64,000 nucleotides of DNA from Alphaproteobacteria bacterium (GCA_965222575.1 OZ244958.1:96001-160000); one strand, 5' to 3'. Numbered from the stretch's first letter, positions 22,280 through 53,713 are shown. Notes: a model not told the origin generated them from the sequence alone. Numbers and translations: made by a program.

Positions 22280-23566
22280 TCAGCCCTTATCTTTCAAGGT
22301 GAGAAATTCGTATGGTAAGGGAGGGTTTCTAAATCCCCACAGTGCTAGCATGAGTGCAATTGTTCTATCCGCATGATGATGACCTGAGTCTGCGATAATT
22401 GTCACCTGTCCTGTTGCACTCACGGTCTCTTTGAGACTCATGATATCTTCAAAAAGGTCGTTATCATCAGGCAAGCGGATTCTGTCTTCCTCAAAAAGCC
22501 TGCGCCCCCATGAAAAAAGCTGTTGCTTACTTTTGTGCGTAAACAGAAACCCTTGACATGACTCTCCCATTTTCCTCTGTATTTCTTCTACAAACATTTC
22601 TCCCATCCCCCCTTGGTCAATGAACACCTGAATAGGGCTATACCGCTTGATGGTGTCAATGAGAAGACCTTGCTGCTGTTGAAAGGACAAGTTACGCTTA
22701 GCGAGAATTTTTCTTACCCAGAAAATGTCTTGTGCCTGTTCAACCACAGCAATGCAAAAGAGATGATTGCGGCGCCCCACATCAACGCCTATAGTAATAC
22801 GCCCCCCTGACAAGGGAGGAAACTTCAGCCTTTGGGCTCCCTTGACTTTTTGCCCCTCAAAGACCGTTTCGTTTTGAGAGAGAAACGAGACCTCAAATTC
22901 CTGCTTCCAGATACCCTGATGGTCACAGCCGCTCCTTAAGTGTTCAATATCAAGGTCAAGTCCCATCTCAACAGCTTGGTAAATGTTGACTTTGGACCGA
23001 AACCACGCTTTATTAGAGGTGTGAAAAAGGCTAGAGAAGCGTCCCGTCAAGCCAGCAGGCGTAGAACTTATCCAGCATTTTTTCCCATGAGACGTCACAG
23101 GATAAACAGCTTTCCAGACATCATGACTTTTGTGGTGGTGTGCGAATTCGTCCAGATAGACATTGCGCGTATACCCTCTAGCAGCTTCCGCATTGGCAGG
23201 AAGAGCCGTAATCGAAGCCCCATTACAAAAGACAACAGAGTACGCTTTAAGAGAAGAAATTTCCTCTTCTTTCCAATGAGTCTTATCAGAAAGCACATCA
23301 TGATAAGCCCGATTAAGCGCAAACAAAATAGGCTTGATGCAATCATTCAATATCATACGCGCTGAGCGTTCATTCACAGAAATAATCAACCAGCTGTTTT
23401 TATCTCCCTTAAGAATCCCATCAAGAATATCAGACACAATGCCCACAGCATGGGTATAGGTCTTGCCGGTTTGTCTTGCCCAGCAAGCAATCTTCAACCT
23501 GTGCGGCGCTTTCAGGTAGGCTTTCTGATAAGGCAGAAGACGAAGCGTGTAGGCACTGGTTTTCAC
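22280..23566 (-). CDS. Terminase large subunit, Mu gp28-like
   Basis: WARQTGKT Walker A, VYLDEF Walker B, ISSTP, nuclease GVDVGRRNH and HADRTIALMLA. Confidence 0.9.
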   Translation of the reverse strand: MKTSAYTLRLLPYQKAYLKAPHRLKIACWARQTGKTYTHAVGIVSDILDGILKGDKNSWLIISVNERSARMILNDCIKPILFALNRAYHDVLSDKTHWKEEEISSLKAYSVVFCNGASITALPANAEAARGYTRNVYLDEFAHHHKSHDVWKAVYPVTSHGKKCWISSTPAGLTGRFSSLFHTSNKAWFRSKVNIYQAVEMGLDLDIEHLRSGCDHQGIWKQEFEVSFLSQNETVFEGQKVKGAQRLKFPPLSGGRITIGVDVGRRNHLFCIAVVEQAQDIFWVRKILAKRNLSFQQQQGLLIDTIKRYSPIQVFIDQGGMGEMFVEEIQRKMGESCQGFLFTHKSKQQLFSWGRRLFEEDRIRLPDDNDLFEDIMSLKETVSATGQVTIIADSGHHHADRTIALMLALWGFRNPPLPYEFLTLKDKG

Positions 23567-23574
23567 CTCTGTGG

Positions 23575-23856
23575 TTACCGCTTTTTCAGGGATTCAATAT
23601 TTTGATTTAGAGACTTAAGAGTGTTTGCTAAATTGCTCACTTCCGTTTGCAAAACAGCAAGTTTCACTTTCACCTCCTCTACAAATGCCTGAGAGACCGT
23701 ATGTTCTTCCATGCGTATCAGGCGTTCTTGTAAGGAGGAAAAATGCTTTTTTGAGGCATATAAGGACTGTAAGCGCCACATGAGAGAAGAGACCAAAAAG
23801 CCTAAGACCATAAAGGCAGGTATCCATAATAACCGCAGGATTTCAAACCATTTCAT
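23575..23856 (-). CDS. Small membrane/coiled-coil phage protein (DUF2730 / Mu gp25-like)
   Basis: N-terminal TM, RLIRMEE, coiled-coil C-terminus; position next to terL. Confidence 0.55.
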   Translation of the reverse strand: MKWFEILRLLWIPAFMVLGFLVSSLMWRLQSLYASKKHFSSLQERLIRMEEHTVSQAFVEEVKVKLAVLQTEVSNLANTLKSLNQNIESLKKR

Positions 23857-25055
23857 GAAGGAGAAGACGCCGGATGAGGAAGTCCTAAGATATTGCGCAC
23901 CACATAGTGGTCAATGGCAATCCCTCTATCCATAGCATTGAAAACATCCTGAATTTTGACACGAGTGGGTTCTGTGAGGCTCAGTCTTGGGAGGTGTGTT
24001 TGCACACCAAAATTGACCTGTATCATAAGAGGAATTAAAGAGGTATTAAAGGTCTCTTCTATAGCCGTGGCATCTGATTGGAGGAGTGAAGCTCTAATAC
24101 GGTCATGGACTTCGGCTTGAGCCCTTGAAGACCCATGGTCTGTGGTCATGGTTTGCCCTAAGATGAGTTTAGAAATCTGTAGATTACAATAGTCTAAGAG
24201 CTGCAGATGATTAGAGGAAGTGGCTTTGGTGTCTCTGATAAGATTGATATCCATAGATTTTGGAACAGCAGCCACCATAGAAGCATTGATTTCGCGCAAG
24301 GCACGCAAAAGGGTCTGTTTATCCTCTTCAGAGGCATCCGGCCCGAACTTGCCTAACCGAATAGGTTTTCCGAAAAGCTCAAGATATTCCATCCAGTCCT
24401 TCAGACAAAATTGCTGAAAAAACCACAGCATAAGAGCAGGGCGCGCCAAGCCATTACGCAACAAATTGCTATCAGATTTCCCGTTATGAACATGCAGAAG
24501 GGCTTGATACGGTTTCAACGGGAGACTCTCCCCCTCCTCAGAGAGAAGAGACAGCCTTCCATTAGAAACCTGAAAGAAACTCTGGTCAGCCCACTCAAGA
24601 TGAGGCAGCCAGTACTCTTGATACCGCCACGAAATGGAAAAAACGGCAAACCCTTTCGCAAGGGCATCAAGCATCTGAAACAGTAATTGTTGAAACTTAG
24701 TTTGATGAATCCACCGGGAGACAAAATCAGCATGCACAAGAGCAGCTTTAGTCGTGTCAGCAGGCGAAATCAAAGGGGTAAGCTGCGCCGTTTGTTGCTT
24801 CCTAGTAGTAAGAACCGCTACATAATGCGGCCACCTTTCTTCCATACTTTGCGCTAAGCGAAAAAAAGCTTGACCATCTCCCATATCCGCAAGATGAAGA
24901 GCCCTGTTGATAACAGCAGGCGTTTGAGGCAGATGACCCTCCCAAAAATAACACTGAGGCGGGTATCTCTTCTTAATGTTAGAACAAAGTGCAGAGGATG
25001 TACCCCCACCTTTCTTGAACAAAGACAAATCCGCTCTTTTCAGAAAATTGAACAT
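23853..25055 (-). CDS. Portal protein, Mu gp29 / DUF935-like
   Basis: MLDALAKGFAV, DWMEYLELFGKPIRLGKF, QISKLILGQTMTTDHGSSRAQAEVH. Confidence 0.92.
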   Translation of the reverse strand: MFNFLKRADLSLFKKGGGTSSALCSNIKKRYPPQCYFWEGHLPQTPAVINRALHLADMGDGQAFFRLAQSMEERWPHYVAVLTTRKQQTAQLTPLISPADTTKAALVHADFVSRWIHQTKFQQLLFQMLDALAKGFAVFSISWRYQEYWLPHLEWADQSFFQVSNGRLSLLSEEGESLPLKPYQALLHVHNGKSDSNLLRNGLARPALMLWFFQQFCLKDWMEYLELFGKPIRLGKFGPDASEEDKQTLLRALREINASMVAAVPKSMDINLIRDTKATSSNHLQLLDYCNLQISKLILGQTMTTDHGSSRAQAEVHDRIRASLLQSDATAIEETFNTSLIPLMIQVNFGVQTHLPRLSLTEPTRVKIQDVFNAMDRGIAIDHYVVRNILGLPHPASSPS

Positions 25056-25140
25056 AAAACACCAAGGATAAAGGAACCTCTATAGTGCCACAGGTAAAAA
25101 CGAAAAGTTCAGAGGTACTTAACTACTCCCCTCCGTTAGC

Positions 25141-25892
25141 CCCTTCAATAAGGGAAAGGGGGGGGGGATGAGCCCTCCTTTGTGGAGAATAAAGTGAATC
25201 CCGTGTGTGACTTGACAGGACGCCTCCCTTCAATAAGGGAAAGGGGGGGGGATGAGCCCTCCTTTGTGGAGAATAAAGTGAATCCCGTGTGTGACTTGAC
25301 AGGACGCCTCCCTTCAATAAGGGAAAGGCAGGGGGATGAGCCCTCCTTTGTGGAGAATAAAGTGAATCCCGTGTGTGACTTGACAGGACGCCTCCCTTCA
25401 ATAAGGGAAAGGCAGGGGGATGAGCCCTCCTTTGTGGAGAATAAAGTGAATCCCGTGTGTGACTTGACAGGACGCCTCCCTTCAATAAGGGAAAGGCAGG
25501 GGGATGAGCCCTCCTTTGTGGAGAATAAAGTGAATCCCGTGTGTGACTTGACAGGACGCCTCCCTTCAATAAGGGAAAGGCAGGGGGATGAGCCCTCCTT
25601 TGTGGAGAGAAAAGTGAATCCCGTGTGTGACTTGACAGGACGCCTCCCTTCAATAAGGGAAAGGCGGGGGGATGAGCCCTCCTTTGTGGAGAGAAAAGTG
25701 AATCCCGTGTGTGACTTGACAGGACGCCTCCCTTCAATAAGGGAAAGGCGGGGGGATGAGCCCTCCTTTGTGGAGAGAAAAGTGAATCCCGTGTGTGACT
25801 TGACAGGACGCCTCCCTTCAATAAGGGAAAGGCGGGGGGATGAGCCCTCCTTTGTGGAGAGAAAAGTGAATCTCATGCGTGACTTGACAGGA
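25141..25892. repeat. 84-bp tandem repeat, about 9 copies
   Basis: CCCTTCAATAAGGG recurs at 25141, 25226, 25310 ... 25814; no unique spacers. Confidence 0.95.
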
Positions 25893-25999
25893 CTAGGTTG
25901 TGGCATTTTTCCCATAAATCTTTGGCACAAAAATAAAGTAGCTCTAAAAAGGCTTACGCTCTTTATGAAAGAGTGTCTTGATAAGAAAAATCAAAATCC

Positions 26000-28900
26000 A
26001 TGATATATCCTGTCGTTGAACTGGTCTTAAACAACATTCCCTATGATTTATCAGGGGCCTTGTTATCCTTTGAAAGGCACGCAAGAGGGGTCACCTTTAA
26101 GTTTAAGGCAGAAGGTCTTCCTTTAGAAATACACCCTCTTGACCAAGAATGGATAGGGGGACTGTTATGGCTGAGGGAAGAGGGAGAGCGGAGAAAAAGC
26201 AAGATAGTAGAGCAGCCTACCTTATCAGAGCATATTGTGACGGTACAGGGGTTGCAAGGGACGCAGACCGTGTTATTAGGCAACAGGCTAGAGGATGCGA
26301 CCTTACTGTTACAGGCTACGCAGGAAGATGTCTTATTATTGAACCTTATCAAAAAGAATGACCGTCTATTATTAGAAGAAGTGGAGCGCTATCAAGAGGT
26401 TATCTTTGGGTCTTTACCTTGTGTATTGAAGCCTTTATTTCGCTCTCCATATGGCACCTTATCAGAGGCTGTGGGGAAAGGAGAACTGGTGATTTTCTTA
26501 GAAAATCTTTCTCAATTGTTTCCCACAACAGGATATCTCTTAATAGGAGAGGAAGAATACACCATACAAGAGCGCAGGATTTTTCAGGAGGAGAGGCCTT
26601 TCATCAGTATAACACTAGCCTCAAAGACCCTCAAAAGCTATAAAGCGGGAGAGGCGGTGTTTCTTAGTCGTCAACCGTCATGGTGGATTGCCCCAACAGG
26701 CACCACAGCCCTTGAGATAGGAGAGCAACGTTTAGAAAAACAGAATGCACAAGAGAGCATACCAATAAGTGGGGATGTGTTCTTGCCTTGTGGCGTGGTG
26801 CGGTTATGGGGAAAAGAAAGAGCTTTGGAAGATTGCGGCTCACTCCAGACTTTGCTGGAGTTTGACGATGCAAGCCAGTCCACCTCACTTAATCCCTCTC
26901 ACGCCATAGGAGCTGTACATCGTACCATAACACAAGCAATCGGCGATGCTACAGTTGAAATGAGTGAAGACGCAGCGTTGACTTTCCCCGCTCTTCCGGA
27001 AAGCTCTTTGGAAGTACGTTACGCCTTTTCCTATGAAGTAGGCAATATTCCCTCACTTGGAGTGACAACAATCTGGGTTGGAGACCATGTCATTTATAAC
27101 CAGCTAAACGACTCCGTGCTGTATAATCCTCAAAAAGTACAATTCACAGATAGTCACTTCAAAGGCATACTCATGCCTGTAAAATTCAAAACCACAGGCC
27201 TCATCACAGGGGATACCCCCTTTGTGACTTTTCGCAATGTGCACCGCTTCGTCAAAGAGGGGCACAACAATGATAATCTCTTTTCCAGTATTGGCAAAGG
27301 ACAAGCCTTAAAAGCAACTCTTAAGAGTCCTGTGGATAAGCTTGGTCGACTAGAAAAGGCAGAGGCCGTGGTACAGTATTTTTTCAATAAGCGCCTTAGC
27401 ACATCGGAACGCATCCTTATACAAGGATACAACGGCCAAAAGCGCTACACCTTATTGACAGCGCAAACAGCTGGAGGCCTAGCAGGAGAAGACAGAACGC
27501 AAGAACTTGCGTTTCCATTCAACACAGGCCATGCCTTCTTAAGTAATCAAAACATCTCAGCATTGATATCAGGCGGTATTGCTACGTTAACAAACCTCAT
27601 GGGTAAGCAAAAAGAAACCTTTTTCATACCGCCCTATCAAGTCGAAAAAAACAATGGGAGTTACACCCGTTTCAGCAACATGGAATTTTTACCGCCGGTG
27701 AATCTCAACACATCAGAGACTCATAAACTCTGGATATACTTCCAGCCAGTACCAGTAAAAGACCTTCTTTACATGAATGCCAATGGCATCAGACTAGTAA
27801 GTCATGGGAAGTTCAAAAGCGACGCCACACTTCGAAATCTCCTCAACTACTCTACTCACACTCACCAACGCACGCGATCTTGGGATTCCACAAGAAAAGA
27901 GTCAATTTTAGATGTTTCCTCTGGAAACGTTAATAGAAACGGAGGATTAAGAGGGCCGTTTGTCTTTAACCATAAAAACGCGGCATTACCCCTTCGCTTT
28001 GCCTGTCCACCGGAGAAAGACCCTTTCCAGACCACAAAAACACCAGGAACAAGTATCTACATGATTCAACCTCTGTACCCGCAACCAAATCCAGCCTACA
28101 TCATCATAGAGTGGTCTATTATCCCTCCTTCTTTCTCCAGTACAAAAGCCTCCGGAAAATTGCAAATCCTTAAGCCAAATTTACCATTGAAAGGAGAGTC
28201 AAAAACAGAAATAGACCTCTCAACACACTCACAACCCACAAGAACAACGACAAAATATCTTCCGCTGGACTGGATACAGGAGTTATCACAACTCAACAGC
28301 CTCCTCTTAGAAGTGTCCCTTCAGTCCACTACCACCCCTAGTAATATCAGACTCAATGTTGTACGTTGTCTCCTGCGGATAACGTATCAGGAGCAATGCT
28401 ACAAGCCGGTACACTCACACTGGCTGCTATGTCACAGTAGTGGGCGCTTAGACGAGATACTCACCACTCTAAGCCACCGATTAGGTCTCTCTTTTCGAAA
28501 AGAACACAGTGTCGTCAGTATAGGCTTTGACACTGTCCTAAAAGGTCTTTTGCCCGGGAATCAAAACTGCTGGAAAGTCCTATCGGAACTCTGTGAGATG
28601 CTGGATGGGGGATGGAGTGCAGAGGACGGATTACGCCTGTACGATAGAAGAGACGGACAGGTTGTCAAAAGTTTTACCCCTGGAGATTATAAGAGCTTTT
28701 CCGTACACTTCAGCGATAGCAATGAGCGTTGTCACAACGTGCTCATCACCTTCGGTAAGGAAACAGAGAAACAATACACATATGTCTATCCCTCTCCCTC
28801 AGAAATTCTCAAGCGCCACAGTGCACGTGACCTCTCCTTTTCCATAGCAACTCTTGATAAAAATCCCACACCCGCCAACACCAAAAGCTTCAAGTTTCCT

Positions 28901-29155
28901 TGGCAAGTAGAGAAACAAACAGGAGAAAATATTGCCAAAAGACTATACCAACGATACGCAACATTGCGCCGCACCATCACCCTCCTCTTACCCACTCCTT
29001 CCCCTCTGAAAACAGGAGATAAAGTCCTAATATCCCTCCCCTCCATGAAAGGAGAATTCCTCAAAGCCGTCATCACTTCCACAAACAACCAAGGCCTTCA
29101 GTGTGAAGAAATCCCACACCACACCACTCCCTTCACTGGCACAGCACTAAAGTGA
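26000..29155 (+). CDS. Large putative phage tail-tip/baseplate hub (host-specificity) protein
   Basis: 1051 aa; C-terminal region (KVLSELCEML...FSVHFSDSNERCHNVLITF...LKTGDKV) resembles siphovirus tail hub domains; adjacent to portal/terL. Confidence 0.55.
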   Translation: MIYPVVELVLNNIPYDLSGALLSFERHARGVTFKFKAEGLPLEIHPLDQEWIGGLLWLREEGERRKSKIVEQPTLSEHIVTVQGLQGTQTVLLGNRLEDATLLLQATQEDVLLLNLIKKNDRLLLEEVERYQEVIFGSLPCVLKPLFRSPYGTLSEAVGKGELVIFLENLSQLFPTTGYLLIGEEEYTIQERRIFQEERPFISITLASKTLKSYKAGEAVFLSRQPSWWIAPTGTTALEIGEQRLEKQNAQESIPISGDVFLPCGVVRLWGKERALEDCGSLQTLLEFDDASQSTSLNPSHAIGAVHRTITQAIGDATVEMSEDAALTFPALPESSLEVRYAFSYEVGNIPSLGVTTIWVGDHVIYNQLNDSVLYNPQKVQFTDSHFKGILMPVKFKTTGLITGDTPFVTFRNVHRFVKEGHNNDNLFSSIGKGQALKATLKSPVDKLGRLEKAEAVVQYFFNKRLSTSERILIQGYNGQKRYTLLTAQTAGGLAGEDRTQELAFPFNTGHAFLSNQNISALISGGIATLTNLMGKQKETFFIPPYQVEKNNGSYTRFSNMEFLPPVNLNTSETHKLWIYFQPVPVKDLLYMNANGIRLVSHGKFKSDATLRNLLNYSTHTHQRTRSWDSTRKESILDVSSGNVNRNGGLRGPFVFNHKNAALPLRFACPPEKDPFQTTKTPGTSIYMIQPLYPQPNPAYIIIEWSIIPPSFSSTKASGKLQILKPNLPLKGESKTEIDLSTHSQPTRTTTKYLPLDWIQELSQLNSLLLEVSLQSTTTPSNIRLNVVRCLLRITYQEQCYKPVHSHWLLCHSSGRLDEILTTLSHRLGLSFRKEHSVVSIGFDTVLKGLLPGNQNCWKVLSELCEMLDGGWSAEDGLRLYDRRDGQVVKSFTPGDYKSFSVHFSDSNERCHNVLITFGKETEKQYTYVYPSPSEILKRHSARDLSFSIATLDKNPTPANTKSFKFPWQVEKQTGENIAKRLYQRYATLRRTITLLLPTPSPLKTGDKVLISLPSMKGEFLKAVITSTNNQGLQCEEIPHHTTPFTGTALK

Positions 29156-29927
29156 GAGGAAAACCTCCCCCACACAGCGTTACCCGTGCGAAGAAAACCT
29201 CCAGTATAGGGGGGGCTGAGGTGACATTGGGGGGGTTCACCCGCACAGCATTAAAGTGAGAGAAAAACCTCCCCCGCACAACGTTACTCGTGAGAGAAAA
29301 AATCCAGTATAGGGGGGGCTGAGGGGGATATTAGGGGGGGCTTCCCCCACACAACGTTATTCGTGAGAGAAAAACCTCCCACACACAGCGTTACCCGTGA
29401 GAGAAAAACCTCCCCCGCACAACGTTACCCGTGCGAAGAAAACCTCCAGTATTAAGGGGGGCTGAGGGGGATATTGGTAAGGCTTCCCCCGCACAGCGTT
29501 ACCCGTGAGAGGAAAACCTCCCCCCCCACACAGCGTTACTCGTGAGAGAAAAACCTCCCCCGCACAACGTTACCCGTGAGAGGAAAACTTCCCCCGCACA
29601 ACGTTACCCGTGAGAGGAAAATTCCAATATAGGGGGGGGCTGAGGGGGATATTAGGGGGGCTTCCCCCGCACAGCACTAAATTGAGAGAAAAACCTCCCC
29701 CGCACAACGTTACCCGTGCGAAGAAAACCTCCAGTATAGGGGGGGGCTGAGGTGACATTGGGGGGGTTCACCCGCACAGCACTAAAGTGAGAGGGAAACC
29801 TCCCCCGCACAACGTTACCCGTGCGAAGAAAACCTCCAGTATAGGGGGGGGCTGAGGTGACATTGGGGGGGTTCACCCGCACAGCACTAAAGTGAGAGGG
29901 AAACCTCCAGTATTAGGGGGGCTGAGG
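29139..29927. repeat. Compound GC-rich tandem repeat (about 34-bp subunits in about 105-bp higher-order units)
   Basis: Recurring GCACAACGTTACCCGTG(A/C)GA.GAAAACCTCC and TATAGGGGGGGCTGAGG. Confidence 0.9.
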
Positions 29928-29961
29928 AATGAAAAGACCCGCCCTTTGTACAACAGAAGAC

Positions 29962-30240: not shown

Positions 30241-30255
30241 TGTGAGTTGTGGGGG

Positions 30256-30669: not shown

Positions 30670-30683
30670 ACTGCTCTTAAACT

Positions 30684-33697: not shown

Positions 33698-33710
33698 AGA
33701 AGAACCTCAA

Positions 33711-34763
<1,053 letters not shown>

Positions 34764-34887
34764 TCACCCGCCATCATCTCACTCGCATAAGTGACATTGC
34801 ACTCAGCACTCTCCTATACTAGTATAGTCATATCCTCCATCCAAGCCTCTATTTATTTATTCGCCACAGACTAATCACCCGCCTCAC

Positions 34888-36671: not shown

Positions 36672-36765
36672 AAAAATACTTGCTTATCTCCGCATTCTCT
36701 ATACAATACACAATACTTAAGACAAGAAAAAAAACCCTCCTAACCCACAGCACTCATAAGCTTTC

Positions 36766-41844: not shown

Positions 41845-41851
41845 GGCTCCC

Positions 41852-43342: not shown

Positions 43343-43503
43343 GAGGAATTTTTAAGTGTGTCTTGCGTTGGAAAAATACTGCTACTGCCTTACAGTAGCC
43401 TTAAGAATAGTATAACAAGAGGGCAGGGGAAAGGAAAATTTTTTCGTGCATGTTAATAGGATTGGTGATATGCTCCTAAGTTAAGATAAGGGTGAGACAG
43501 GTT

Positions 43504-43812
43504 ATGGAAACGCTAGCCTTAATTTTTCATGTGATGATAAGTATCACGATGATTATTGCAATTATTTTGCAAAATCTAGACGTTTCTGGTGCCTTAGGCA
43601 TAGGGAACACGAATATAGGGTCAGGTGGGGTACGCGTTGATATGCCAACGAAGTTAACGGCATGGTTAGGGGTGCTGTTTTTTTGTACCTCTTTAGGCAT
43701 AGCGATGTTATCGGGAGGAAATCAAAGTTTGATACCGCCCGCACCGCCTAGTGTTCCGCAAGTCCCTCTTCCGGGTATTTCCTCTTCTGGTGAGGAAGGG
43801 TCTAGTTCGTGA
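43504..43812 (+). CDS. secG: Preprotein translocase subunit SecG
   Basis: Two TM helices with Gly-rich loop, TKLTAWLGVLFF; directly upstream of pyrG. Confidence 0.85.
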   Translation: METLALIFHVMISITMIIAIILQNLDVSGALGIGNTNIGSGGVRVDMPTKLTAWLGVLFFCTSLGIAMLSGGNQSLIPPAPPSVPQVPLPGISSSGEEGSSS

Positions 43813-43846
43813 GGCAGGGAAGACTTGTCACCAACACTTCTGTGTA

Positions 43847-45490: not shown

Positions 45491-45500
45491 AGGAGATTTT

Positions 45501-46193
45501 TTACAGTGGGATGGTCTGAAGTGTTAAGGTTGTAGACCAACGATTGGTTTCCTCTTGGATAAGAGGTGTCATGTGTCCTTTGACACAGCGCCATACATAT
45601 TGATTGTGTTCGACAGCACCGAGAAAGAAAGGCTTTGTTGCAAAGTCAGTGACATGGGCAAACTCCTCCCAATGAGAGAGAGTATCAGGGGTGATAAAAG
45701 CGAAGGTTAAGGTTCCTTGTGTGAGGATATTGCGCAGGGAGGTGTGCAAAGCCCCTGTGTAGAGTTTTTCAAGTTGGAGTTCCGCCTGTTCTGTGAAACG
45801 ATAGGGGAGGAGTGGAGGGAAGACATTGAGTTGTTTCCCTGCTATCACATGAGAGGCATAGAGGGGGGTTTTGAGTCGTAAAGCGCCGTAAAAAGGTTGT
45901 GAAAATTCCAATGTGATGACGAAACGCTGAGGGGTCGAGAGTTTGGGGGGGTAGGGGGGGGTATAGTGAAACTGGATGGTGGGGGTTTGAGGAGGAATAG
46001 GGGCATGATGGTGGGGGTTTTCCTCTGATAGGAGGAGTGTGTGTGGGGTGTGGTTATGTTGTGTTGTGAGTCCTATGAGGGCTATATGTGTGGCATTTTG
46101 TAGTAGCGGTGTTGGGGTATTGCGGTCTAGTGGATATCCCAAAGGCGTGTGTTGTCCGAAGAGGAGTTTGAAATGGAAGGGTTCTGTTGTCAT
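45501..46193 (-). CDS. Putative distal tail protein
   Basis: Directly follows the tape measure gene; beta-rich; call is positional. Confidence 0.45.
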   Translation of the reverse strand: MTTEPFHFKLLFGQHTPLGYPLDRNTPTPLLQNATHIALIGLTTQHNHTPHTLLLSEENPHHHAPIPPQTPTIQFHYTPPYPPKLSTPQRFVITLEFSQPFYGALRLKTPLYASHVIAGKQLNVFPPLLPYRFTEQAELQLEKLYTGALHTSLRNILTQGTLTFAFITPDTLSHWEEFAHVTDFATKPFFLGAVEHNQYVWRCVKGHMTPLIQEETNRWSTTLTLQTIPL

Positions 46194-46871
46194 TTACAGT
46201 CCGTTATCTATGACAAGTGTTTTCAGATGAGCCCGTTTACGGTTTTGAGCGATTTCCATGAGGTCATCTAAGAGGCGTTCAGGGTCGTGTTGTTTTTGTA
46301 GAGAAACGTTAATAGTGATGTGTTGTTGTGTGTGTTGTGGTATTGGGGTTGGGCGCTCATCAGAAAGTAACCCTCCTTTTTTAAGCTGTGGAATTTTGTG
46401 TTCATTGATTTGTTTGAGGAGTGGATAAAAAGCTCTTGTAGCGCGTGCATTGACAATGAATTCCCCGTCTGAGAGGGCAATAATATTGGCATCATTTGTT
46501 GGAGAGCCTTTTCCTTTGAAGAGGCCGCCTTTTGAGAAAGAAGGGAAGGAGGGAGAGGAGGAGGAAGGGCTTTGTGAAGAGAGGGAGGTTTTGAGGCTTC
46601 GAAAGGATTGAGCAAGGTTTCTGTTTTGTTGTGAGAGGATAGAGACGGCTTTAGCGGCAGAGGAGAGGGATTGGGTATAGGCTTTACTATTGTTTTTCAG
46701 TATGTTGAAGGATTGGGAAAGGGTGAAGGTATATTTGAGGGTTTCCATGAAGGAGGCGGCAACGTTACTAGCGTGTTGCTTGAGGGTTTTGAGGGAGGAA
46801 GAGAGGGTATTAACTTGCTGTGAAGCGTTTTGAGTAGAAGCGGTGACTTCGAGTTCAACAGAAAGCGTCAT
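46194..46871 (-). CDS. Miniature tape measure protein
   Basis: N-terminal LSVELEVTAST plus helical region; C-terminal FSKGG...G...D...ALSDGEFIVNARAT motif typical of tape measure C-termini. Confidence 0.75.
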   Translation of the reverse strand: MTLSVELEVTASTQNASQQVNTLSSSLKTLKQHASNVAASFMETLKYTFTLSQSFNILKNNSKAYTQSLSSAAKAVSILSQQNRNLAQSFRSLKTSLSSQSPSSSSPSFPSFSKGGLFKGKGSPTNDANIIALSDGEFIVNARATRAFYPLLKQINEHKIPQLKKGGLLSDERPTPIPQHTQQHITINVSLQKQHDPERLLDDLMEIAQNRKRAHLKTLVIDNGL

Positions 46872-46877
46872 GGGGAA

Positions 46878-47291
46878 TCAGGAGAGATGTTCAATGGAGA
46901 ATCTATCCATCCAGAAGAGTCCACTTTCTATGATATCCATGAGGGTACCCAGTGAGAAGAAGACTTTGAAGGGAAAGGGATGTGTGAGGAGAGCGTTTCT
47001 AACGGTGCGGCGTTGTTTTTCCAGTGTGATGATAGCACGCGAAGTATTGACGCGGGAGGAGTGTTGTGTTGTGGTGCCTTGGATACCGAAGATGACGCCA
47101 ACGGTAGTGGTCATATGAGCTGTATTGGTATTGCCTAGAGGTTCATTAGCTTTTTGTTGCAGGGGTGTCATGAGGAGGCAAGGGATGGTATAGTTTTCTA
47201 TATTTTGCGTTTGCAGGAGCCACTGAATATCGTGCTTACGGGCAAGAACTTCAAAGACCTCTTGAAATGGTGAGGTGATGAGGGGTGTCAT
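46878..47291 (-). CDS. Putative tail terminator (gp37-like)
   Basis: Position, IPCLLM, C-terminal LFWMDRF. Confidence 0.55.
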   Translation of the reverse strand: MTPLITSPFQEVFEVLARKHDIQWLLQTQNIENYTIPCLLMTPLQQKANEPLGNTNTAHMTTTVGVIFGIQGTTTQHSSRVNTSRAIITLEKQRRTVRNALLTHPFPFKVFFSLGTLMDIIESGLFWMDRFSIEHLS

Positions 47292-47695
47292 GAGGAGCGT
47301 GTGGGGTTAAGGTCTGAGAGGATATCCTTTATGAGGGTTTGGATATGGTCGTGATGGAGTCCGAGGAAAGGTCTTGCGGGCACAGTTTTTGTTCCGAATT
47401 GATGGAGTGGTGCATAGTGGAGGGGTGAGCCAACGGAGAAAGCGTTGTGTCGGAGATGTATGAGGAAGGAATTTTTGAGTTGGCCGGTTTTGACGAGGGC
47501 TTTACGTTTGGGGCGTTGATTTTTAAGAGGGGCCCAATGTTTGCCGTCTGGGGTGCGTTGAGAGAAGAATCGATGACGGGTTTCTTCAAGAGCATGGTGT
47601 GCATTTTTTCGCAGAGCCCCTTGGATATTCATCTCCGCCATTCTTTCAATAGCATGAAGAACAGAAGAGAAATTGCGAAGCGCAAAACGCATCAC
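47288..47695 (-). CDS. Phage virion morphogenesis protein (Mu gpG-like)
   Basis: RF..QRTPDGKHWAPL, TGQLKNS, YAPLHQFG, PARPFLG. Confidence 0.92.
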   Translation of the reverse strand: MMRFALRNFSSVLHAIERMAEMNIQGALRKNAHHALEETRHRFFSQRTPDGKHWAPLKNQRPKRKALVKTGQLKNSFLIHLRHNAFSVGSPLHYAPLHQFGTKTVPARPFLGLHHDHIQTLIKDILSDLNPTRSS

Positions 47696-48051
47696 TGATG
47701 AGACACACGTTGTGTTTGTACGCCCGCCATGAGAGGTTTTTTGTGTTCGGTATCGCCTAGAGAAATTTTTCGTTGTGCAACATTTTGTAGGAACGAAATA
47801 GCATCCTCATATCGTTTCGCAATGGAAGGCGGCACATCAAAGACAAACAACCGAAAGCAAACGATATCAAAGACAGCCGTTGCAATAGCTCTGATAGCCC
47901 ACTGATTAGTCCCTTTAGGCATAACGCTTGCGGTATAACCGAAGGCAAGGGCATTGCTATCACTGAGGACTTCTCTTAGGAGAGAATCCTGCCAAGAGAT
48001 ATCGCTAGCAGTTAGTCGGTCTTTACAAGCCTTGAGGTCAAGATATTCCAT
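47692..48051 (-). CDS. Head-tail adaptor, Mu gp36 / DUF1320
   Basis: DIVCFRL, RYEDAISFLQNVAQRKISLG. Confidence 0.88.
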   Translation of the reverse strand: MEYLDLKACKDRLTASDISWQDSLLREVLSDSNALAFGYTASVMPKGTNQWAIRAIATAVFDIVCFRLFVFDVPPSIAKRYEDAISFLQNVAQRKISLGDTEHKKPLMAGVQTQRVSHQ

Positions 48052-48052
48052 A

Positions 48053-48928
48053 CTAACTCATCCATGGTGTAACAAGGAGAGAAGCAGAATCCTTCCAGAT
48101 ATTAGACGCATTAGAAGATACTGTGTCAGCATAGAGAATTTTTCGTGCATCCTCTTCTAGTGCAGGCGGTACAACAAGGAGATTCGGCATGATTCCTAAA
48201 GAGATGTTGTCTTTTCCTTTGAGGTTTTGGAGAGCCTGCCTAGCAGTTTTATAAGTCGCAGCAGAAAGTGCGGCCTTAGAGCCATAAGCGAGTTGCCAAA
48301 GCCCGAACCCTGCTGCTACGCGCGCCGTAACACCAAAGAGCAGTTCATCTCTACGATAAACAGTATCAGAGTCCATAGTATCAAGGGAATCGAAACGATA
48401 ATCCTTTCTGACTTGCCAAATGAGGGGTTTCAAAGCCTGAGAGGTATCCATTAACACCCAGGGAGTGTCTGATCCACCAGCAGTATTACTATTATCCGTC
48501 CCGCGCTCTGTTGAAAAGAAGGGCTTCCCATCGTAAGCTTTTGCTGTCCACCCTTCTTTGAGAAGTGAGAAGAGAACGGCATTAGGGTGCTGGGCTGCTT
48601 GTCGTCCGAGGATACGGGCTCGAGTGGCGTAGAGTCCATATTTATCGTCGTCTATATCATCCTTTTTGACAGAGATAGTCTTTTCGTACTTCTTATTCTT
48701 GATAGCAAAGGAGTGACCAGAGAGTTCAGACACAGCACGTTCGCCTATCCATTCTTTGAGGCTATGGTCATCGGAAAGCCAAGCATAATCTTCCGTATCA
48801 GAAGTCGAGTTCACAATAAGGGCAATCTTTTTATAGTCACCAGCTGCCGGAGAGACAGAAAGTCCTTCTTGGAAAGCGGTTTTGTATCCTGTGTTAAGCC
48901 GTAAGGTAAAATTGGTATCAAAAGTCAT
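48053..48928 (-). CDS. Major capsid protein, Mu gpT-like
   Basis: YAWL, KEWIGER, IKNKKYEKTISV..DDIDDD, AGFGLWQLAYGS, PNLLVVPPALE. Confidence 0.95.
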   Translation of the reverse strand: MTFDTNFTLRLNTGYKTAFQEGLSVSPAAGDYKKIALIVNSTSDTEDYAWLSDDHSLKEWIGERAVSELSGHSFAIKNKKYEKTISVKKDDIDDDKYGLYATRARILGRQAAQHPNAVLFSLLKEGWTAKAYDGKPFFSTERGTDNSNTAGGSDTPWVLMDTSQALKPLIWQVRKDYRFDSLDTMDSDTVYRRDELLFGVTARVAAGFGLWQLAYGSKAALSAATYKTARQALQNLKGKDNISLGIMPNLLVVPPALEEDARKILYADTVSSNASNIWKDSASLLVTPWMS

Positions 48929-48972
48929 GGTCTGTATAGGGGATTGTGTGTTGAGGTTAAGGGAGGAAATTC

Positions 48973-49365
48973 TTAAGTAACAAAGACCCAAACTTTGCCA
49001 TCATCAAGCCCGATGACTTTGCCAAGTTCGGTAGAACCACTAGAGGTTTTAGTAACGGTATAGCTGTCGTGAATATGGACCTTTTTACCAACTTCAGTGA
49101 TTCCAACAGCAGCATTACTTGCGGCGTTCGTAAAAAGATAGGCTTCATTGCGCCTAATGACAATCTCTTTGTCACCATTCTCTCCTAATTGATTGTCCAC
49201 GGAATGGTCAGCAATACCAATAACAATAAGATTTTCTGCTTTTGTGGCTTCTTTAGCATATCCACCGTCTAAGATAACAATATGGCCTTTATCAATTTTT
49301 GTTTCGCCCTTGACAGGGACTTTACAAAGAGTTCCAGTAGTTCTTAAGGTATTAATAGCAGTCAT
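48973..49365 (-). CDS. Capsid decoration/cement protein (DUF2190-like)
   Basis: IGIADHSVDN..G..GD, GKVIGLDDGKVWV; between protease and capsid genes. Confidence 0.75.
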   Translation of the reverse strand: MTAINTLRTTGTLCKVPVKGETKIDKGHIVILDGGYAKEATKAENLIVIGIADHSVDNQLGENGDKEIVIRRNEAYLFTNAASNAAVGITEVGKKVHIHDSYTVTKTSSGSTELGKVIGLDDGKVWVFVT

Positions 49366-49374
49366 AATGTCTCC

Positions 49375-50253
49375 TTATGATGTAGTGTTCTGTTGATTAG
49401 CCATGAAAAGTGGGTAAGAAATGCCCATTTTTTGGCAAAATTCTTTATCGGATTCCGGCGCGGGTTTGAGGGAGCTTTTAGCGGTGTGAATAGGAAGGGA
49501 AGGCTCAAAGAGAGGTTTCAGAGCAGAAAGGATTTCTTCGCACTCTTTAGGGTTCTTTACAGCGAAACAGTTGATAGCAGGCCTTAAGGCTGGCATGAGG
49601 GCGCCGGATTGGATGGTTTGGTCAATGAGTTGCGTGAGTGGCGCTGAAGGCTGTTGTAGAGTCTCGTCTTTATGTTTTAGGACTTGCGTTGAAGCTACAG
49701 GGTTTTTCTTTTCCTGTTCTTTCTCATTATGGAAGAGAGAGGTCATATTGAGGTTAGGGATATTGGTTAAGGAAACGCGTTTGAGAGCAAGCACAATGAA
49801 GGCGTCGGTTTTTTTGTTATCGATTAAAAGGCGTTGTTTTTCGACTTTGAGGACAGGAGAGAGGGAGCGGTATTCTTTATTTTGGATAGCGTTTTTACCG
49901 ATTTCTGTCCATAGAATGCGGGCTTTGAGGGTATTGTTTTCTTGGAAGAGTTCTTGTATCCATCCAGCAGCTTTAGAACTAGCCCCTTTATCTGTGGAAT
50001 GGTCAAAGTCCACGGCAATGGGGAGGTCTGTGCTAAGGATAATGTCTTCAAGGCTTTTGATGATAAAGGGTCCACGTCCATCCTTTCCATAGAAGGGAGA
50101 TTGCGCGGGCAGGATTTGTATGATATGAGGAATACTGCTTTGGTGCGTTGAGGAGTCCTGTGGCACAATGAAGACAGATTCAGGAAGAGGCATAGTGGAA
50201 GTTGTCATAGTTTTGCTATTATGGAAGAAAGAGGAAAAGAAGTTCAGAGGCAC
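49375..50253 (-). CDS. Mu-like prohead protease/scaffold (gpI)
   Basis: DGRGPF, IAVDFDH, AAGWI, WT..G..AI.NKEYRSLSPV, SLTNIPNL. Confidence 0.92.
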   Translation of the reverse strand: MPLNFFSSFFHNSKTMTTSTMPLPESVFIVPQDSSTHQSSIPHIIQILPAQSPFYGKDGRGPFIIKSLEDIILSTDLPIAVDFDHSTDKGASSKAAGWIQELFQENNTLKARILWTEIGKNAIQNKEYRSLSPVLKVEKQRLLIDNKKTDAFIVLALKRVSLTNIPNLNMTSLFHNEKEQEKKNPVASTQVLKHKDETLQQPSAPLTQLIDQTIQSGALMPALRPAINCFAVKNPKECEEILSALKPLFEPSLPIHTAKSSLKPAPESDKEFCQKMGISYPLFMANQQNTTS

Positions 50254-50280
50254 TTTTTTTTTGACCGGGAGGATTCTGTT

Positions 50281-50613
50281 TTAGAGAGCTTTATGTACAG
50301 TAATACTGAGAGAGGCAGGGTTATTAGGAGTGATATGTAGAGAGCCTGCGAGGTCTCTGAAAGAGATACTGATACGCCACTGTCCGATTTGGTTAAAGGT
50401 CTCTTCGTAGAAAGAGAGTTTGATGATTCCTTTTTGTGCATTGTGTACGGAGGCCTGTGGAGATTTCAGGGCGGGGGATTTTTCAAGGGCGGCACGTGCT
50501 CTTATGTCCCAGATATCTGAGAGGTCAAGAGGCTGGTGTGTGTTCGTGTTGAGCAGTTGCAGAAGGAGAGGTGCAGACGAAAACTGAACGAGATGAAAAT
50601 GTAAAAGCGTCAC
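50281..50613 (-). CDS. Putative baseplate upper protein (BppU N-terminal-like)
   Basis: QPLDLS...NAQKGII...ETFNQIGQW pattern; inside virion operon. Confidence 0.45.
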   Translation of the reverse strand: MTLLHFHLVQFSSAPLLLQLLNTNTHQPLDLSDIWDIRARAALEKSPALKSPQASVHNAQKGIIKLSFYEETFNQIGQWRISISFRDLAGSLHITPNNPASLSITVHKAL

Positions 50614-50622
50614 GATGGGTAT

Positions 50623-50826
50623 TTAGCTAACGAAGACAATGTAATGGTGAGCGGAGAGGTATTGATTTGGCGTGACAAAAGCCCCGGCAGTGAGACTGAT
50701 ATTTTTCTTCAGGGAAAAGAAGGCATTAGCAACATACACATTTCGACCATTAACTTCGAAGGTAAGGAGTGTAGAAAGGTTTTCGAGTGCTGTTTCCTGT
50801 GGAGTACTTAGTTGTGGGAGTGTCAT
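50623..50826 (-). CDS. Small hypothetical phage protein
   Basis: 67 aa, overlaps upstream stop, inside operon. Confidence 0.5.
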   Translation of the reverse strand: MTLPQLSTPQETALENLSTLLTFEVNGRNVYVANAFFSLKKNISLTAGAFVTPNQYLSAHHYIVFVS

Positions 50827-51137
50827 GAGTTTTGTAAGAGGGTTTGCATAATGAGATTGGCTTCAGAGATTTTCGCAATGAGTTGTTGGTTCCATTTAAT
50901 AGTTGAGGCTTTAGCGAGGAAGAAAAGGTCTTGAATAGAGAAGCCGCCCCATGCGTTCTCATGATGTGTGCAGGCGTAAGGGTTTTGAGAGAGCAGTGTG
51001 AAGAGGGGGGTATTTTCTTTCATAATCCAGAATTTATTGTCATAACGGAAAAGAGGGTGTTGTGGAGTTTCGATGAGCAAGGAGTGGTTAGGGCTTCTGT
51101 CCTCTAGTTGATACAAAGAGGCCAGAGCCCTTGTGAG
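50823..51137 (-). CDS. Tail assembly chaperone, -1 frameshift extension (gpGT-like)
   Basis: Open in the -1 frame from the A AAA AAC slippery site at 51143-51137. Confidence 0.7.
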   Translation of the reverse strand, partial: LTRALASLYQLEDRSPNHSLLIETPQHPLFRYDNKFWIMKENTPLFTLLSQNPYACTHHENAWGGFSIQDLFFLAKASTIKWNQQLIAKISEANLIMQTLLQNS

Positions 51138-51490
51138 TTTTTTCGTTCTAGGGAGGTTGCGTAGTGTTTTTGAGTCTCTTCTATTCCGAAAAGGATAGAA
51201 AGGTAAGCGGTGACAAGAGCGCTTAAAACAGCAGGCATATTGAGAAGTGCGTGCTTGACTTGTTGAGAGAAAGCTAGTGGTTTATTGTTACGATTGACAA
51301 GGTCTGAAGCGTTGATGAAGGCTTTTTCCATGAGGAGTTTATCGGCATTTTTGCTATTGATGAGGCTTTTGATTTCGTGAGCAGAGAAGGTGAGAAACGT
51401 TGCAATGAAGGACTGGTTTTTTTCTTGTAGGGTGATGAGAGCGTTGAAGGGCACGGGACGTTGAGAAAGGATAAACATGCTGAGTTTCAA
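51104..51490 (-). CDS. Tail assembly chaperone (lambda gpG-like)
   Basis: Follows the tail tube gene; ends ...ERKNS over the slippery heptamer. Confidence 0.75.
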   Translation of the reverse strand: MKLSMFILSQRPVPFNALITLQEKNQSFIATFLTFSAHEIKSLINSKNADKLLMEKAFINASDLVNRNNKPLAFSQQVKHALLNMPAVLSALVTAYLSILFGIEETQKHYATSLERKNSQGLWPLCIN

Positions 51491-52419
51491 GTAGTGGTAG
51501 TGAAGGTAATGGAGATAGTTTCTGTATCAAGGTTAGTAGGCAAGGCTTGGAATTGGGTATTGAGCATGGAGATTTCTTGGAGTGTCTCTTTTTGACATTG
51601 TAGGAGGTGTGCTTTAGGGAGTTCTAAGGTAAGGGTTGAGTGCAGGAAGTTTGTGGTATCAGAAGTTGTCATGGCAAGACTGAAACTAATTTTTTTCTTT
51701 TGGAGGGGTTTTTGGAGGTCTTGAAGGAATTTTTGTGAGAGCTGGTTATGAGGAATGAGGATTTGAGTATAGGGTGTTTGGAACTGTTGAGTGATAGTGT
51801 TTTTCGAAGCGAGAGGGAGGGAGGAATTTTGGACATTGGTGTGGAGAGTAGCATCATAGAAAGAGAAGAGAGCATCGTTGATTTTACAGGAGAGGGTTTT
51901 AGAGAAAGGAGGAAGTGCGGGTAAGTCGGGCGTGGGTTTTTTTGAGGCTAGGATTTTTGGCAGACCAAGAGCTGAGAAGGAGATGAAGGGGAAAGGGTTT
52001 TGAAAATGGAAGGAGGCACTGATTTTGAGTTGAGAAATTTGGTATTGCGTTTGTGCATGTTGGAAGAAGAGAGAAACATCAGGTGTTGAGGCTTGTGAGA
52101 AGAGAAATTGGGTTGGGTCTCCCGGTTTTTTAGAAAAGCCACAAGCTGTGAGAAGTTGGAGATATGAAGGAAGTGGACTTAAGGAGTCTTTTTTTTGGGG
52201 AGAGAGGAGGCACTTGAAATCAACTTCTTGAGAAACGAAGGTGTTAAGAGTGAGTTGAGAAGAAGCCTTTGTTGCAAACGCCATTGTTGTGTTATCACTG
52301 TAGATTAGCTGTGTTCTAAAATCGAAGACCTGTAGTGGGATGATGGTTTCTATACTGTTTTGCGTAAAAGTACAGAATATAGTATGCGGGCGCTCTTGGA
52401 AGAAAGTATCTTGGGTCAT
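51487..52419 (-). CDS. Putative tail tube (major tail) protein
   Basis: 310 aa, LLTACGF motif, precedes the chaperone pair. Confidence 0.65.
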   Translation of the reverse strand: MTQDTFFQERPHTIFCTFTQNSIETIIPLQVFDFRTQLIYSDNTTMAFATKASSQLTLNTFVSQEVDFKCLLSPQKKDSLSPLPSYLQLLTACGFSKKPGDPTQFLFSQASTPDVSLFFQHAQTQYQISQLKISASFHFQNPFPFISFSALGLPKILASKKPTPDLPALPPFSKTLSCKINDALFSFYDATLHTNVQNSSLPLASKNTITQQFQTPYTQILIPHNQLSQKFLQDLQKPLQKKKISFSLAMTTSDTTNFLHSTLTLELPKAHLLQCQKETLQEISMLNTQFQALPTNLDTETISITFTTTT

Positions 52420-52443
52420 GTGCTTATAAGAAGAAAGGTTGAG

Positions 52444-52776
52444 CTAGTGAGAAAGGAATCGTTTTTTCCATCGCATGATGGTCTGCCTATTGACTTTAAG
52501 GACTTGAGCAGCTTTATAAGTGGAAAGAGCATGAATGACTTGCAAGTACTCTGGCTTCCATTTTCCTGCGCCCCTAGAGCTTTGTTTGATAGGGAGATAC
52601 AAGAAATCGCCGCCAAAGATATGAATAAGAGCCTTGGCTTTTTCATCCCCGACAGCAGAGCGGATTTTGCTATTTTTGTGTTTGGGAATATAAAGCCTTC
52701 CGCCCCCCGTGGATTGAATAAGACCCTGAAAAGCTTTTTCCCCTATTAAGTCTTTTACCCATTGAATAACTGTCAT
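52444..52776 (-). CDS. Mor/C-family transcription activator
   Basis: GGGRLYIPK and FGGDFLYLP motifs, C-terminal HTH (YKAAQVLKVNRQTIMRW). Confidence 0.8.
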   Translation of the reverse strand: MTVIQWVKDLIGEKAFQGLIQSTGGGRLYIPKHKNSKIRSAVGDEKAKALIHIFGGDFLYLPIKQSSRGAGKWKPEYLQVIHALSTYKAAQVLKVNRQTIMRWKKRFLSH

Positions 52777-53032
52777 CAGAAAAAGAAAATCATTTGTAAT
52801 AAAATTACTGTAATAAGCTTTTTCCTGAAATTTTAGAGCAACTATAAAAAGGGGAAATATACCGATAATTGGTTAGTATGAAAAGATTTTTGGGGTCTCT
52901 TTCAGAAAATTGAAAGGAAAAAAATACAAAAAAATTCATAGAAAATTAATCTTCTCAGGAAAGATAAAACTCTAAGAGAGGAAACATGAAAAATGAACAA
53001 GGTGGTGCGTTAGCATTGCGGGTATTTTAGTA

Positions 53033-53061
53033 TATATTACTTTACGCAAAAGGGTAATATA
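53033..53061. promoter_or_regulatory. Candidate operator TATATTAC-N13-GTAATATA between divergent mor and repressor genes
   Basis: 8-bp perfect inverted repeat in the AT-rich intergenic region; function inferred. Confidence 0.4.
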
Positions 53062-53104
53062 AATTATATTTTTTCTTTCTTAGCAAAAATACTCAAGAGG
53101 TGTA

Positions 53105-53713
53105 ATGAAAGGGGCAAAGAAGTTGAAGAGATTCCATAAGAAGTTACGCGATTTAGTGGAGGAGTGCTACAAGGGGAATTGGTCTTCTATGGGTCGTGCG
53201 TGCGGAATTAGTCCGACAAGTTTACAACGTCTAAAAGAAGGAGGGTTTCCACGCTTAGAGACACTATTGAAGCTCAGTCACGGGTTAAAGATAGATATAG
53301 ACAGTTTATGCACTGAAGAGGCACTCGGGGAAGGAGGAGAGACAGTACGCATTAAAAGGTTTGGTTCTAAAGAGCAGTTTTATGGCTTCAGTCGCTCGTG
53401 GTTAATTGCACGCGGGTTACTGGATTGTCCGCTTTGCGTAGCAGAAATAGGGGAAGATGATAGTCTATTGCCTGAGTTTCAGCGCGGGGATTTGTGCTTA
53501 CTACAAGTTGGAGATAAGGATTTGAAGAGTGGAAGTCTATACGGTTTATTCATTGAAGGAGAAGTGTTATTGCGTTATGGGTCTCATTTTCCGGACGGGT
53601 ATCTTTTTCACGGAAGTAGAATAGAGAAGGGGTACTATAAGTTAGGGGAGCAAGGATTTTCTCAGCAATCCATTATAGGGAGACTAGTTGGATGTCTGAA
53701 AACCTACAATTAA
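53105..53713 (+). CDS. CI/XRE-type repressor with degenerate S24 domain
   Basis: HTH (SMGRACGISPTSLQRL...PRLETLLKL); C-terminal DDSLLPEFQRGD...IIGRLV. Confidence 0.82.
   Translation: MKGAKKLKRFHKKLRDLVEECYKGNWSSMGRACGISPTSLQRLKEGGFPRLETLLKLSHGLKIDIDSLCTEEALGEGGETVRIKRFGSKEQFYGFSRSWLIARGLLDCPLCVAEIGEDDSLLPEFQRGDLCLLQVGDKDLKSGSLYGLFIEGEVLLRYGSHFPDGYLFHGSRIEKGYYKLGEQGFSQQSIIGRLVGCLKTYN

Follow-up and report, generated by a model that had tools for sequence, protein, structure and literature searches.

Gene transfer agents (GTAs) such as BaGTA, VSH-1, Dd1 and VTA are independent domestications of different phages into DNA-packaging particles, and we know of none that is built on the gp29/gpI/gpT head set of phage Mu. 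Among the papers listed by one literature search, titles and abstract openings likewise disclosed no GTA on Mu-type head genes, which is a thin basis for stating that none is in print. Here we analyzed a 64,000-nucleotide stretch of an alphaproteobacterial chromosome (OZ244958.1, bases 96001-160000; hereafter the window), in which an initial annotation had proposed a GTA derived from a Mu-like virion gene set that was split between two loci and reordered. Positions are those of the window unless they are given for the genome.

The agent of Rhodobacter capsulatus, RcGTA, is a multi-locus GTA (PMC5026251). The two loci studied here, A and B, resemble RcGTA in that phage-like structural genes occur without replication or integration functions, occupy several chromosomal loci and have lysis genes elsewhere. 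They differ in that their families are of Mu type, no small terminase is recognizable, no conserved lineage is known and the system is known from its genes alone. No RcGTA family name appeared in our scans, whose Pfam matches were of Mu type only, no model-by-model search for RcGTA having been made.

With Mu-like phages the loci share the portal, protease I, capsid T, gp36, gpG, a Mor-type activator and a DUF2730-like protein of Mu type. In contrast to those phages, they have no transposase anywhere in the genome and no small terminase (terS) or gpF gene of their own, the portal gene precedes that of the large terminase (terL), the tube and chaperone genes stand ahead of the head genes, and 16.3 kb of host genes split the set. 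The other comparison is with cryptic prophages of reduced symbionts, such as the WO-like islands of Wolbachia (PMC9203015). These have in common with loci A and B partial gene sets, ankyrin-rich intracellular hosts and chromosome rearrangement, whereas the recognizable genes here are full length, complementary between the loci and marked by host strand skew. A literature search for a named symbiont with Mu-like prophages returned nothing relevant.

The host genome is a single contig of 1,215,846 bp with 45.7% G+C. As ankyrin-repeat genes are plentiful in it, the host looks like a reduced, ankyrin-rich intracellular symbiont. Its 40 nearest species genomes are related at the level of the same class only, and the capsid matched in 3 of 41 genomes, the host included. 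The closest non-self capsid match among 5.8 billion proteins was 50% identical and the closest pyrG match, among metagenome contigs, 55%; thus, the genome, protein and metagenome collections searched held no close relative of the host or the element. We consider the chances about even that loci A and B are a Mu-derived particle gene set that has long been immobile, was scattered by inversions and is kept open by selection. A GTA is a plausible reading of the two loci.

RESULTS

Locus A encodes a Mu-type portal and the only large terminase of the genome

Hidden Markov model (HMM) searches bore out the portal and terL genes named in the initial annotation of locus A, which comprises the following features.

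22280-23566, minus strand: TerL, 428 amino acids (aa); Terminase_6N 6e-13, Terminase_6C 5e-19; PF17289 matches once in the genome
23575-23856, minus strand: 93-aa membrane-anchored coiled-coil protein, Mu gp25 (releasin)-like; DUF2730 19 bits (below the 24.9-bit cutoff), phrog_736 1.3e-7
23853-25055, minus strand: Portal_Mu, 400 aa; 5.8e-79, profile 2-309 of 336 (reported as full coverage)
25141-25893, no strand: tandem repeat of 84 bp x 9, 98% identity, separating the divergent portal and 1051-aa genes
26000-29155, plus strand: orphan 1051-aa open reading frame (ORF), possible tail tip or hub protein; ESM-Atlas lead only

Exactly one terL occurs in the genome, that of locus A, and the Walker A and B motifs as well as the nuclease aspartates can be read in its translation. 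The 93-aa protein combines a transmembrane helix and a coiled coil and matches phrog_736, which favors the gp25-like label, but its DUF2730 score stays below the cutoff. DUF2730 is the family of Mu gp25, a "releasin" required to free the signal-anchor-release endolysin (PMC9239132), and the architecture of the 93-aa protein is as described there for releasin. The "tail hub" label of the 1051-aa ORF had weaker support: ESM-Atlas gave a lead of 0.92 to viral tail clusters, in one of which 27% of the members carry PF13550, but the protein is an orphan with no relatives in Pfam, PHROG, the PDB (phmmer) or a word search.

Long-period tandem repeats lie at the borders of locus A (25141-25893, 29140-29908 and 20524-21252), with units of 84 bp x 9, 105 bp x 7 and 108 or 216 bp. 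They were rejected as a phage feature, as each is unique to its site and part of a genome-wide habit that amounts to 55 such arrays.

Locus B holds the head genes, a Mor-like regulator and candidate tail genes

In order of transcription, locus B runs from the mor-like gene through ORFs of 310, 128, 97, 67 and 110 aa to protease I, the decoration-like gene and capsid T, and continues with gp36, gpG, the terminator-like gene, the 225-aa tape-measure-like gene and a 230-aa ORF; a cI-like helix-turn-helix (HTH) gene is divergent.

53105-53713, plus strand: cI-like HTH regulator, 202 aa, divergent from mor; weak matches, HTH_3 21 bits (cutoff 23), phrog_8, phrog_4
52444-52776, minus strand: Mor-type late activator-like protein, 110 aa; phrog_836 6.7e-14, Pfam Mor 21.4 bits (cutoff 24.9)
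51487-52419, minus strand: tube-like orphan, 310 aa; ESM-Atlas lead of 0.97 to Phage_tube_2 clusters only; extremely poor in G-containing codons
50823-51490, minus strand: tail-assembly-chaperone-like pair, 128 aa (51104-51490) and 97 aa in the -1 frame (50823-51116); phrog_569 1.2e-4 (weak)
50623-50826, minus strand: small 67-aa ORF, read from the ORF layout
50281-50613, minus strand: orphan 110-aa ORF; no Pfam or PHROG match
49375-50253, minus strand: protease I/scaffold, Mu gpI type; PF10123 4.3e-22, profile 1-148 of 330
48973-49365, minus strand: head decoration/cement-like protein, 130 aa; phrog_1731 5.6e-31, 41% identical to its paralogue in a second Mu-type element (Element 2, see below)
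48053-48991, minus strand: major capsid protein, Mu gpT type; PF10124 8.4e-98, likely start at M22, giving 291 aa
47692-48051, minus strand: head-tail adaptor, Mu gp36 type; PF07030 1.6e-7, phrog_195
47288-47695, minus strand: virion morphogenesis protein, Mu gpG type; Phage_tail_S (PF05069) 4.8e-16
46878-47291, minus strand: tail-terminator-like protein, 137 aa; PF23840 20.2 bits (cutoff 27), positioned after gpG as in Element 2
46194-46871, minus strand: short tape-measure-like protein, 225 aa; phrog_3547 1.2e-12 and other tape-measure PHROGs
45501-46193, minus strand: orphan 230-aa ORF after the tape measure; no match, ends 10 bp from the pyrG stop

The Mu-type head module is thus present across the two loci, as portal (PF06074), protease I (PF10123), capsid T (PF10124) and gpG (PF05069). 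The HMM searches confirmed the assignments of protease I, decoration protein, capsid, gp36 and gpG, and those of the regulators as well, mor by its PHROG, with the Pfam score under the cutoff, and cI by weak matches.

The tail assignments of the initial annotation were of uneven quality. The tape measure stood, and the terminator scored under its cutoff. The label "tube" agrees with the ESM-Atlas lead, but Pfam and PHROG were silent on the 310-aa protein, an HMMER scan of 1.84 billion representatives returned one low-complexity match, an AlphaFold2 model made without an alignment was unusable (predicted local distance difference test score, 34.9), and BLASTP found no similarity to the true Phage_tube_2 protein encoded elsewhere in the genome (E, 0.68). 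The labels "BppU-like" for the 110-aa ORF at 50281-50613 and "distal tail" for the 230-aa ORF were unsupported; for the latter, a phmmer search of the PDB was empty and, as for the former, neither Pfam nor PHROG gave a match.

Tail assembly chaperones are classically encoded downstream of the tube gene by two overlapping ORFs, which a -1 slippery heptamer shortly before the first stop codon joins. This is the arrangement found for the 128- and 97-aa pair: the heptamer A_AAA_AAC lies at 51143-51137 in the zero frame of the 128-aa ORF, 30 nt before its stop, and a -1 shift there would fuse the two ORFs into 222 aa. A comparable configuration occurs in only 8 of the 822 ORFs of the genome, so the arrangement is unlikely to be due to chance, which favors the chaperone label even though the phrog_569 match is weak. 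An oddity is that the tube-like gene and the chaperone pair precede the head genes rather than standing between terminator and tape measure.

At the border of the mor-like and tube-like genes (52324-52521), one of the three runs described below, X2, contains a minor 206-nt contig (depth of 13, compared with 49 for the main one) that steps back 198 bp and has 14 differences from the window.

The split and the reordering are features of the chromosome

The host genes that separate the two loci, over about 16.3 kb, are rpsT, ndk, a peptidase gene, rmuC, mreB, gpmI, two S41 peptidase genes, pepA and pyrG, confirming the initial description of some 16 kb of core genes. The pyrG stop lies at 45490 and the end of the 230-aa ORF at 45501, which leaves the 10-bp gap noted before.

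Three of three runs, from two studies, support the junction of pyrG and locus B. In run X1, a 12,630-bp contig that spans pepA, pyrG and locus B corresponds to window positions 41800-53768 with 0 differences; run X2, of the same study, covers the same stretch with 18+2 differences. In run X3, of the second study, a 799-bp contig bridges pyrG and the 230-aa ORF, again with 0 differences; 5 of its 30 bins had no cover, a gap into which nothing is read. Locus B at this junction is not an assembly artifact.

Among related loci with this type of terL, the order is terL, portal, protease, decoration and capsid in 17 of 17. Here terL stands after the portal gene, 20 kb separate the two from the capsid gene, and the tube module is displaced. 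The reordering of the gene set is real, and the claim that its order is unlike that of Mu-type prophages holds. At the borders of the block that appears to have been flipped (see below), inverted repeats were limited to chance-level matches.

The gene set cannot transpose

The window lacks MuA, MuB, replication genes, gp27, gpF, endolysin and sheath, as the initial annotation had stated, and it holds no remnant of gpF, sheath or baseplate. Genome-wide, the transposase domain rve gave 0 matches, compared with 4 of 4 related complete Mu-like proviruses used as controls; DDE_2 and Mu-transpos_C searches were silent everywhere, controls included, and were uninformative. Of 50 ORFs from the transposase regions of related proviruses, the only match in the genome was to a 75-aa HTH in an unrelated primase gene; this transposase candidate, at 987.8 kb of the genome, was rejected because the HTH domain belongs to the primase-helicase of an unrelated prophage. 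The matches of a wider set, 3270 ORFs from 80 related IMG/VR Mu-like loci, were confined to the two loci, Element 2 and a few genes of lysozyme type. The three tyrosine recombinase genes of the genome, at 543, 835 and 949 kb, are not near loci A and B.

The gene set is immobile, and with neither transposase nor terS and gpF in the loci, it does not qualify as an active Mu-like prophage. Loci A and B hold structural genes of phage type but no functions for self-replication or integration, which is one of the traits of a GTA. They have no gene family in common, and together they make up one head-plus-tail set.

Strand skew indicates a long fixed residence of locus B

The genome shows a very strong GC skew, which changes direction near 570 and 1145 kb, and islands of reversed skew at 40-60, 140-150, 190-230, 240-260 and 520-530 kb suggest several recent inversions. 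Host genes around the loci have a third-position skew of 0.55-0.83, which follows the replichore regardless of the coding strand. The skew of the locus B genes is 0.45-0.72 and opposite to the local replichore; the reversed sign is common to locus B and pyrG, and the neighbors on both sides differ from it. Over its coding strand, locus B has a GC skew of -0.32, compared with -0.08 to +0.13 in 80 related viral loci.

We infer that locus B was long fixed in one orientation beside pyrG, nearing the skew equilibrium of the host, and that a 10-kb block comprising pyrG and locus B was then flipped recently. Since a phage that was still transposing could not build up a one-directional skew, locus B would have been immobile for long, and a skew this close to equilibrium implies roughly one or more substitutions per silent site. 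On this point the initial interpretation of a domesticated set gains support, locus B having long been fixed in the chromosome with its frames open.

Within locus B, a 1-kb patch (47545-48540) that crosses the 3' half of the capsid gene, gp36 and the start of gpG shows almost no third-position GC skew, although the sequence on either side is strongly skewed.

Open frames and silent changes suggest purifying selection

The ORFs are all open and tightly packed, 13-14 in locus B and 4 in locus A (17-18 frames), with no stop or frameshift in about 11 kb of coding sequence; phage genes elsewhere in the same genome are, in contrast, visibly broken. Despite its heavy loss of G, locus B retains 28 TGG codons, each one G-to-A change away from a stop, and as G-to-A is the change implied by the skew, this retention is a point in favor of selection.

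In locus B, 9 sites distinguish run X2 from the window. The 5 isolated single-nucleotide polymorphisms (SNPs), two of them in the 230-aa ORF and one each in the tape measure, protease I and the tube-like gene, are all synonymous and at third positions, for which the probability is about 0.004 if changes are evenly spread over codon positions. The other four, non-synonymous, fall within a 20-bp stretch of the tube-like gene and look like one event. Together with the open frames and the slippery site, which is likewise retained, the SNP pattern speaks for purifying selection on locus B, although several tail proteins have drifted strongly. A Shine-Dalgarno (SD)-like motif stood at the usual distance in 2 of the 20 starts examined, and in a third at -16; the host itself hardly uses SD motifs (212 of 822 ORFs, compared with 396 of 2472 background positions), so their retention is uninformative on function.

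Three further phage-derived regions lie elsewhere in the genome

The plain picture of two loci did not hold for the genome as a whole, which contains three further phage-derived regions, two of them visibly broken, as well as lysis genes. Element 2 (genome positions 284000-302200), a second Mu-type element, is contiguous; its genes follow the canonical order and include those for a full contractile tail of P2 type. The portal gene has lost the 5' end and has stops upstream, and an ankyrin gene abuts it. Other genes of the element encode a fusion of gpF with a PBECR2 nuclease domain, protease I, a cement protein, capsid T, gpG and a terminator. The locus A portal and the locus B capsid are 45% and 49% identical to their Element 2 copies. 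A SocA/Panacea gene lies in the Element 2 tail region.

The region at about 949-992 kb is an unrelated, non-Mu prophage with a tyrosine recombinase, big ankyrin genes, an endolysin gene with two membrane protein genes (one DUF6127), a Fic/MerR gene, a gpJ-like protein, DUF1833 and the true Phage_tube_2 protein; no head genes were seen in it. It also encodes three collagen-like fibers with S74 chaperone ends (832, 1055 and 2110 aa) and, besides a replication module, a restriction enzyme accompanied by a Dam-like methylase. The region at 1146-1150 kb is a heavily decayed remnant of phage fragments, among them a lysozyme fragment (profile 37-96 of 125) with 86% identity to its intact counterpart at 954 kb, the N-terminal part of a tape measure and an ORF in which Phage_attach and DUF6441 are fused.

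DISCUSSION

The most likely ancestor of loci A and B is a single Mu-type siphophage. Its genes for transposition, replication, the small terminase and lysis would have been lost and the rest fixed in the chromosome, to be broken up and rearranged by frequent inversions while selection kept about 17 structural genes open. The Mor-type activator would switch on the locus B operon, and the head would be built from the locus A portal with protease/scaffold, capsid T and decoration protein. The sole TerL of the genome, with no recognizable TerS, may pack whatever DNA is at hand, that is host DNA, as in a GTA. The proteins gp36, gpG and terminator would connect the head to a short, non-contractile tail made with the tube-like protein, the frameshifting chaperone pair and the 225-aa tape measure, to a length of perhaps 34 nm (tails measure about 0.15 nm per tape-measure residue), and the 1051-aa protein may sit at the tip. 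Release could depend on the releasin-like protein and the endolysin encoded elsewhere.

As intact TerL and portal genes are retained, a DNA-packaging, GTA-like particle is, judging from gene content, the most likely use of the kept set. We regard as possible, though less likely than not, the more specific proposal of a GTA domesticated from a transposable Mu-type siphophage in an isolated, ankyrin-rich symbiont, with at least two loci, possibly a third with the endolysin, and a terminase that needs no TerS to load host DNA into heads.

Several observations weigh against a kept particle gene set. For terS, PF11985 gave only a 16-bit, chance-level match in an unrelated 1539-aa frame, and 160 ORFs lying upstream of terL in relatives had no homologue in the genome. 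PF04233 (gpF) matched only in Element 2, at 300 kb, and not in the loci. The genome-wide search that the initial annotation called for thus left terS unfound and placed gpF and sheath in the second element, and its "essentially complete" set was overstated: the Mu-type genes are real and open, but terS and gpF are missing. No lysis enzyme lies near the loci; an intact endolysin gene exists in the cassette of another phage. The skew of locus A (+0.04 and -0.09) is unlike that of locus B, so the two may have different histories, locus A having either moved much earlier or arrived later. With 9 sites in locus B, the SNP sample is very small. Four genes, those of the tube-like, 230-aa, tape-measure and protease/scaffold proteins, belong to the 25 of 824 ORFs in which second codon positions follow the mutational bias most closely, and the share of G-codon amino acids in the tube-like protein, 0.15, was the smallest observed. 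Such drift of tail proteins fits relaxed constraint or a lost tail function, and the tail half may already be degenerate. The frames thus appear protected, but the tail proteins are weakly constrained or already failing.

These points feed a strong rival, ordinary prophage erosion in a much-rearranged genome, in which the loci would be inert leftovers of one or more defective Mu-like prophages that decay slowly and make no particle. Phage decay and rearrangement are ordinary in this genome given its three other phage regions, with a 5'-truncated portal, a lysozyme fragment and fused gene fragments, and its skew islands, which speak for many inversions; the missing terS and gpF and the tail proteins that have drifted beyond homology, with a composition that follows mutational bias, are what erosion would leave. 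What this explanation, which we regard as possible without favoring it, has difficulty accounting for is that about one or more changes per synonymous site have produced no stop or frameshift in some 11 kb, that 28 TGG codons have been kept and all five isolated SNPs are silent, and that truly decayed phage genes of the same genome look different. Descent from two phages, with A a later-acquired fragment, B older and their complementarity a coincidence or the result of last intact copies being kept, would explain the differing skew histories and suits a genome that has acquired at least three phages; the unskewed 1-kb patch suggests recombination of B with other phage DNA. We find it unlikely, since A and B have no gene family in common, their portal, protease and capsid all belong to the Mu type, Element 2 stands at about the same distance from each of them, and a single inversion with breakpoints at 26.0 and 45.5 kb would put the 1051-aa ORF directly after the 230-aa ORF.

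The set might also be kept for a purpose other than DNA transfer, as a protein-carrying capsid or a particle that acts on a eukaryotic host. An ankyrin-rich, reduced symbiont would offer the setting for it, the putative tail-tip protein is an orphan, and a Fic protein and large collagen-like fibers occur in another phage region; however, the ATPase and nuclease motifs kept in TerL and the intact portal both point to DNA packaging, and no cargo gene is linked to the loci, which makes this use improbable. Nothing was found in favor of an active Mu-like prophage that only misassembly had split, and this reading is barely credible: the junction of pepA, pyrG and locus B is identical in X1, near-identical in X2 and bridged by a contig of the second study, the genome is a single contig, and the rve counts given above led us to reject an active prophage.

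If particles are made from the long-immobilized set that we propose, they would represent an independent domestication from a transposable phage, in a reduced intracellular symbiont, a type of bacterium thought to have few routes of gene exchange, and the strand-skew "clock" could then date the fixed residence of a phage gene set even where relatives have not been sequenced. Were the GTA reading true, GTAs would have one more independent origin, on a head type used by no known GTA. If no particles are made, the loci are a clean example of inversions that scatter a prophage while its reading frames persist.

ADDITIONAL OBSERVATIONS ON THE HOST GENOME

The amino acid composition of host proteins varies with the strand. 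At 939267-941525 of the host genome, adjoining an array of ankyrin genes, a 752-aa protein carries two GH108-like/peptidoglycan-binding repeats and a long proline-rich tail. A repeated gene pair to which no function was assigned lies at 54096-55132 of the window, at the right edge of the flipped block, with further copies at 272, 389, 392, 396 and 520 kb of the genome. One member is a 249-aa protein with a signal-peptide-like start, and the other, a 96-aa ORF, is built from a 15-bp unit repeated 15.6 times; the copies are 56-73% identical and flanked by CCCCTTGGGG-type tandem repeats.

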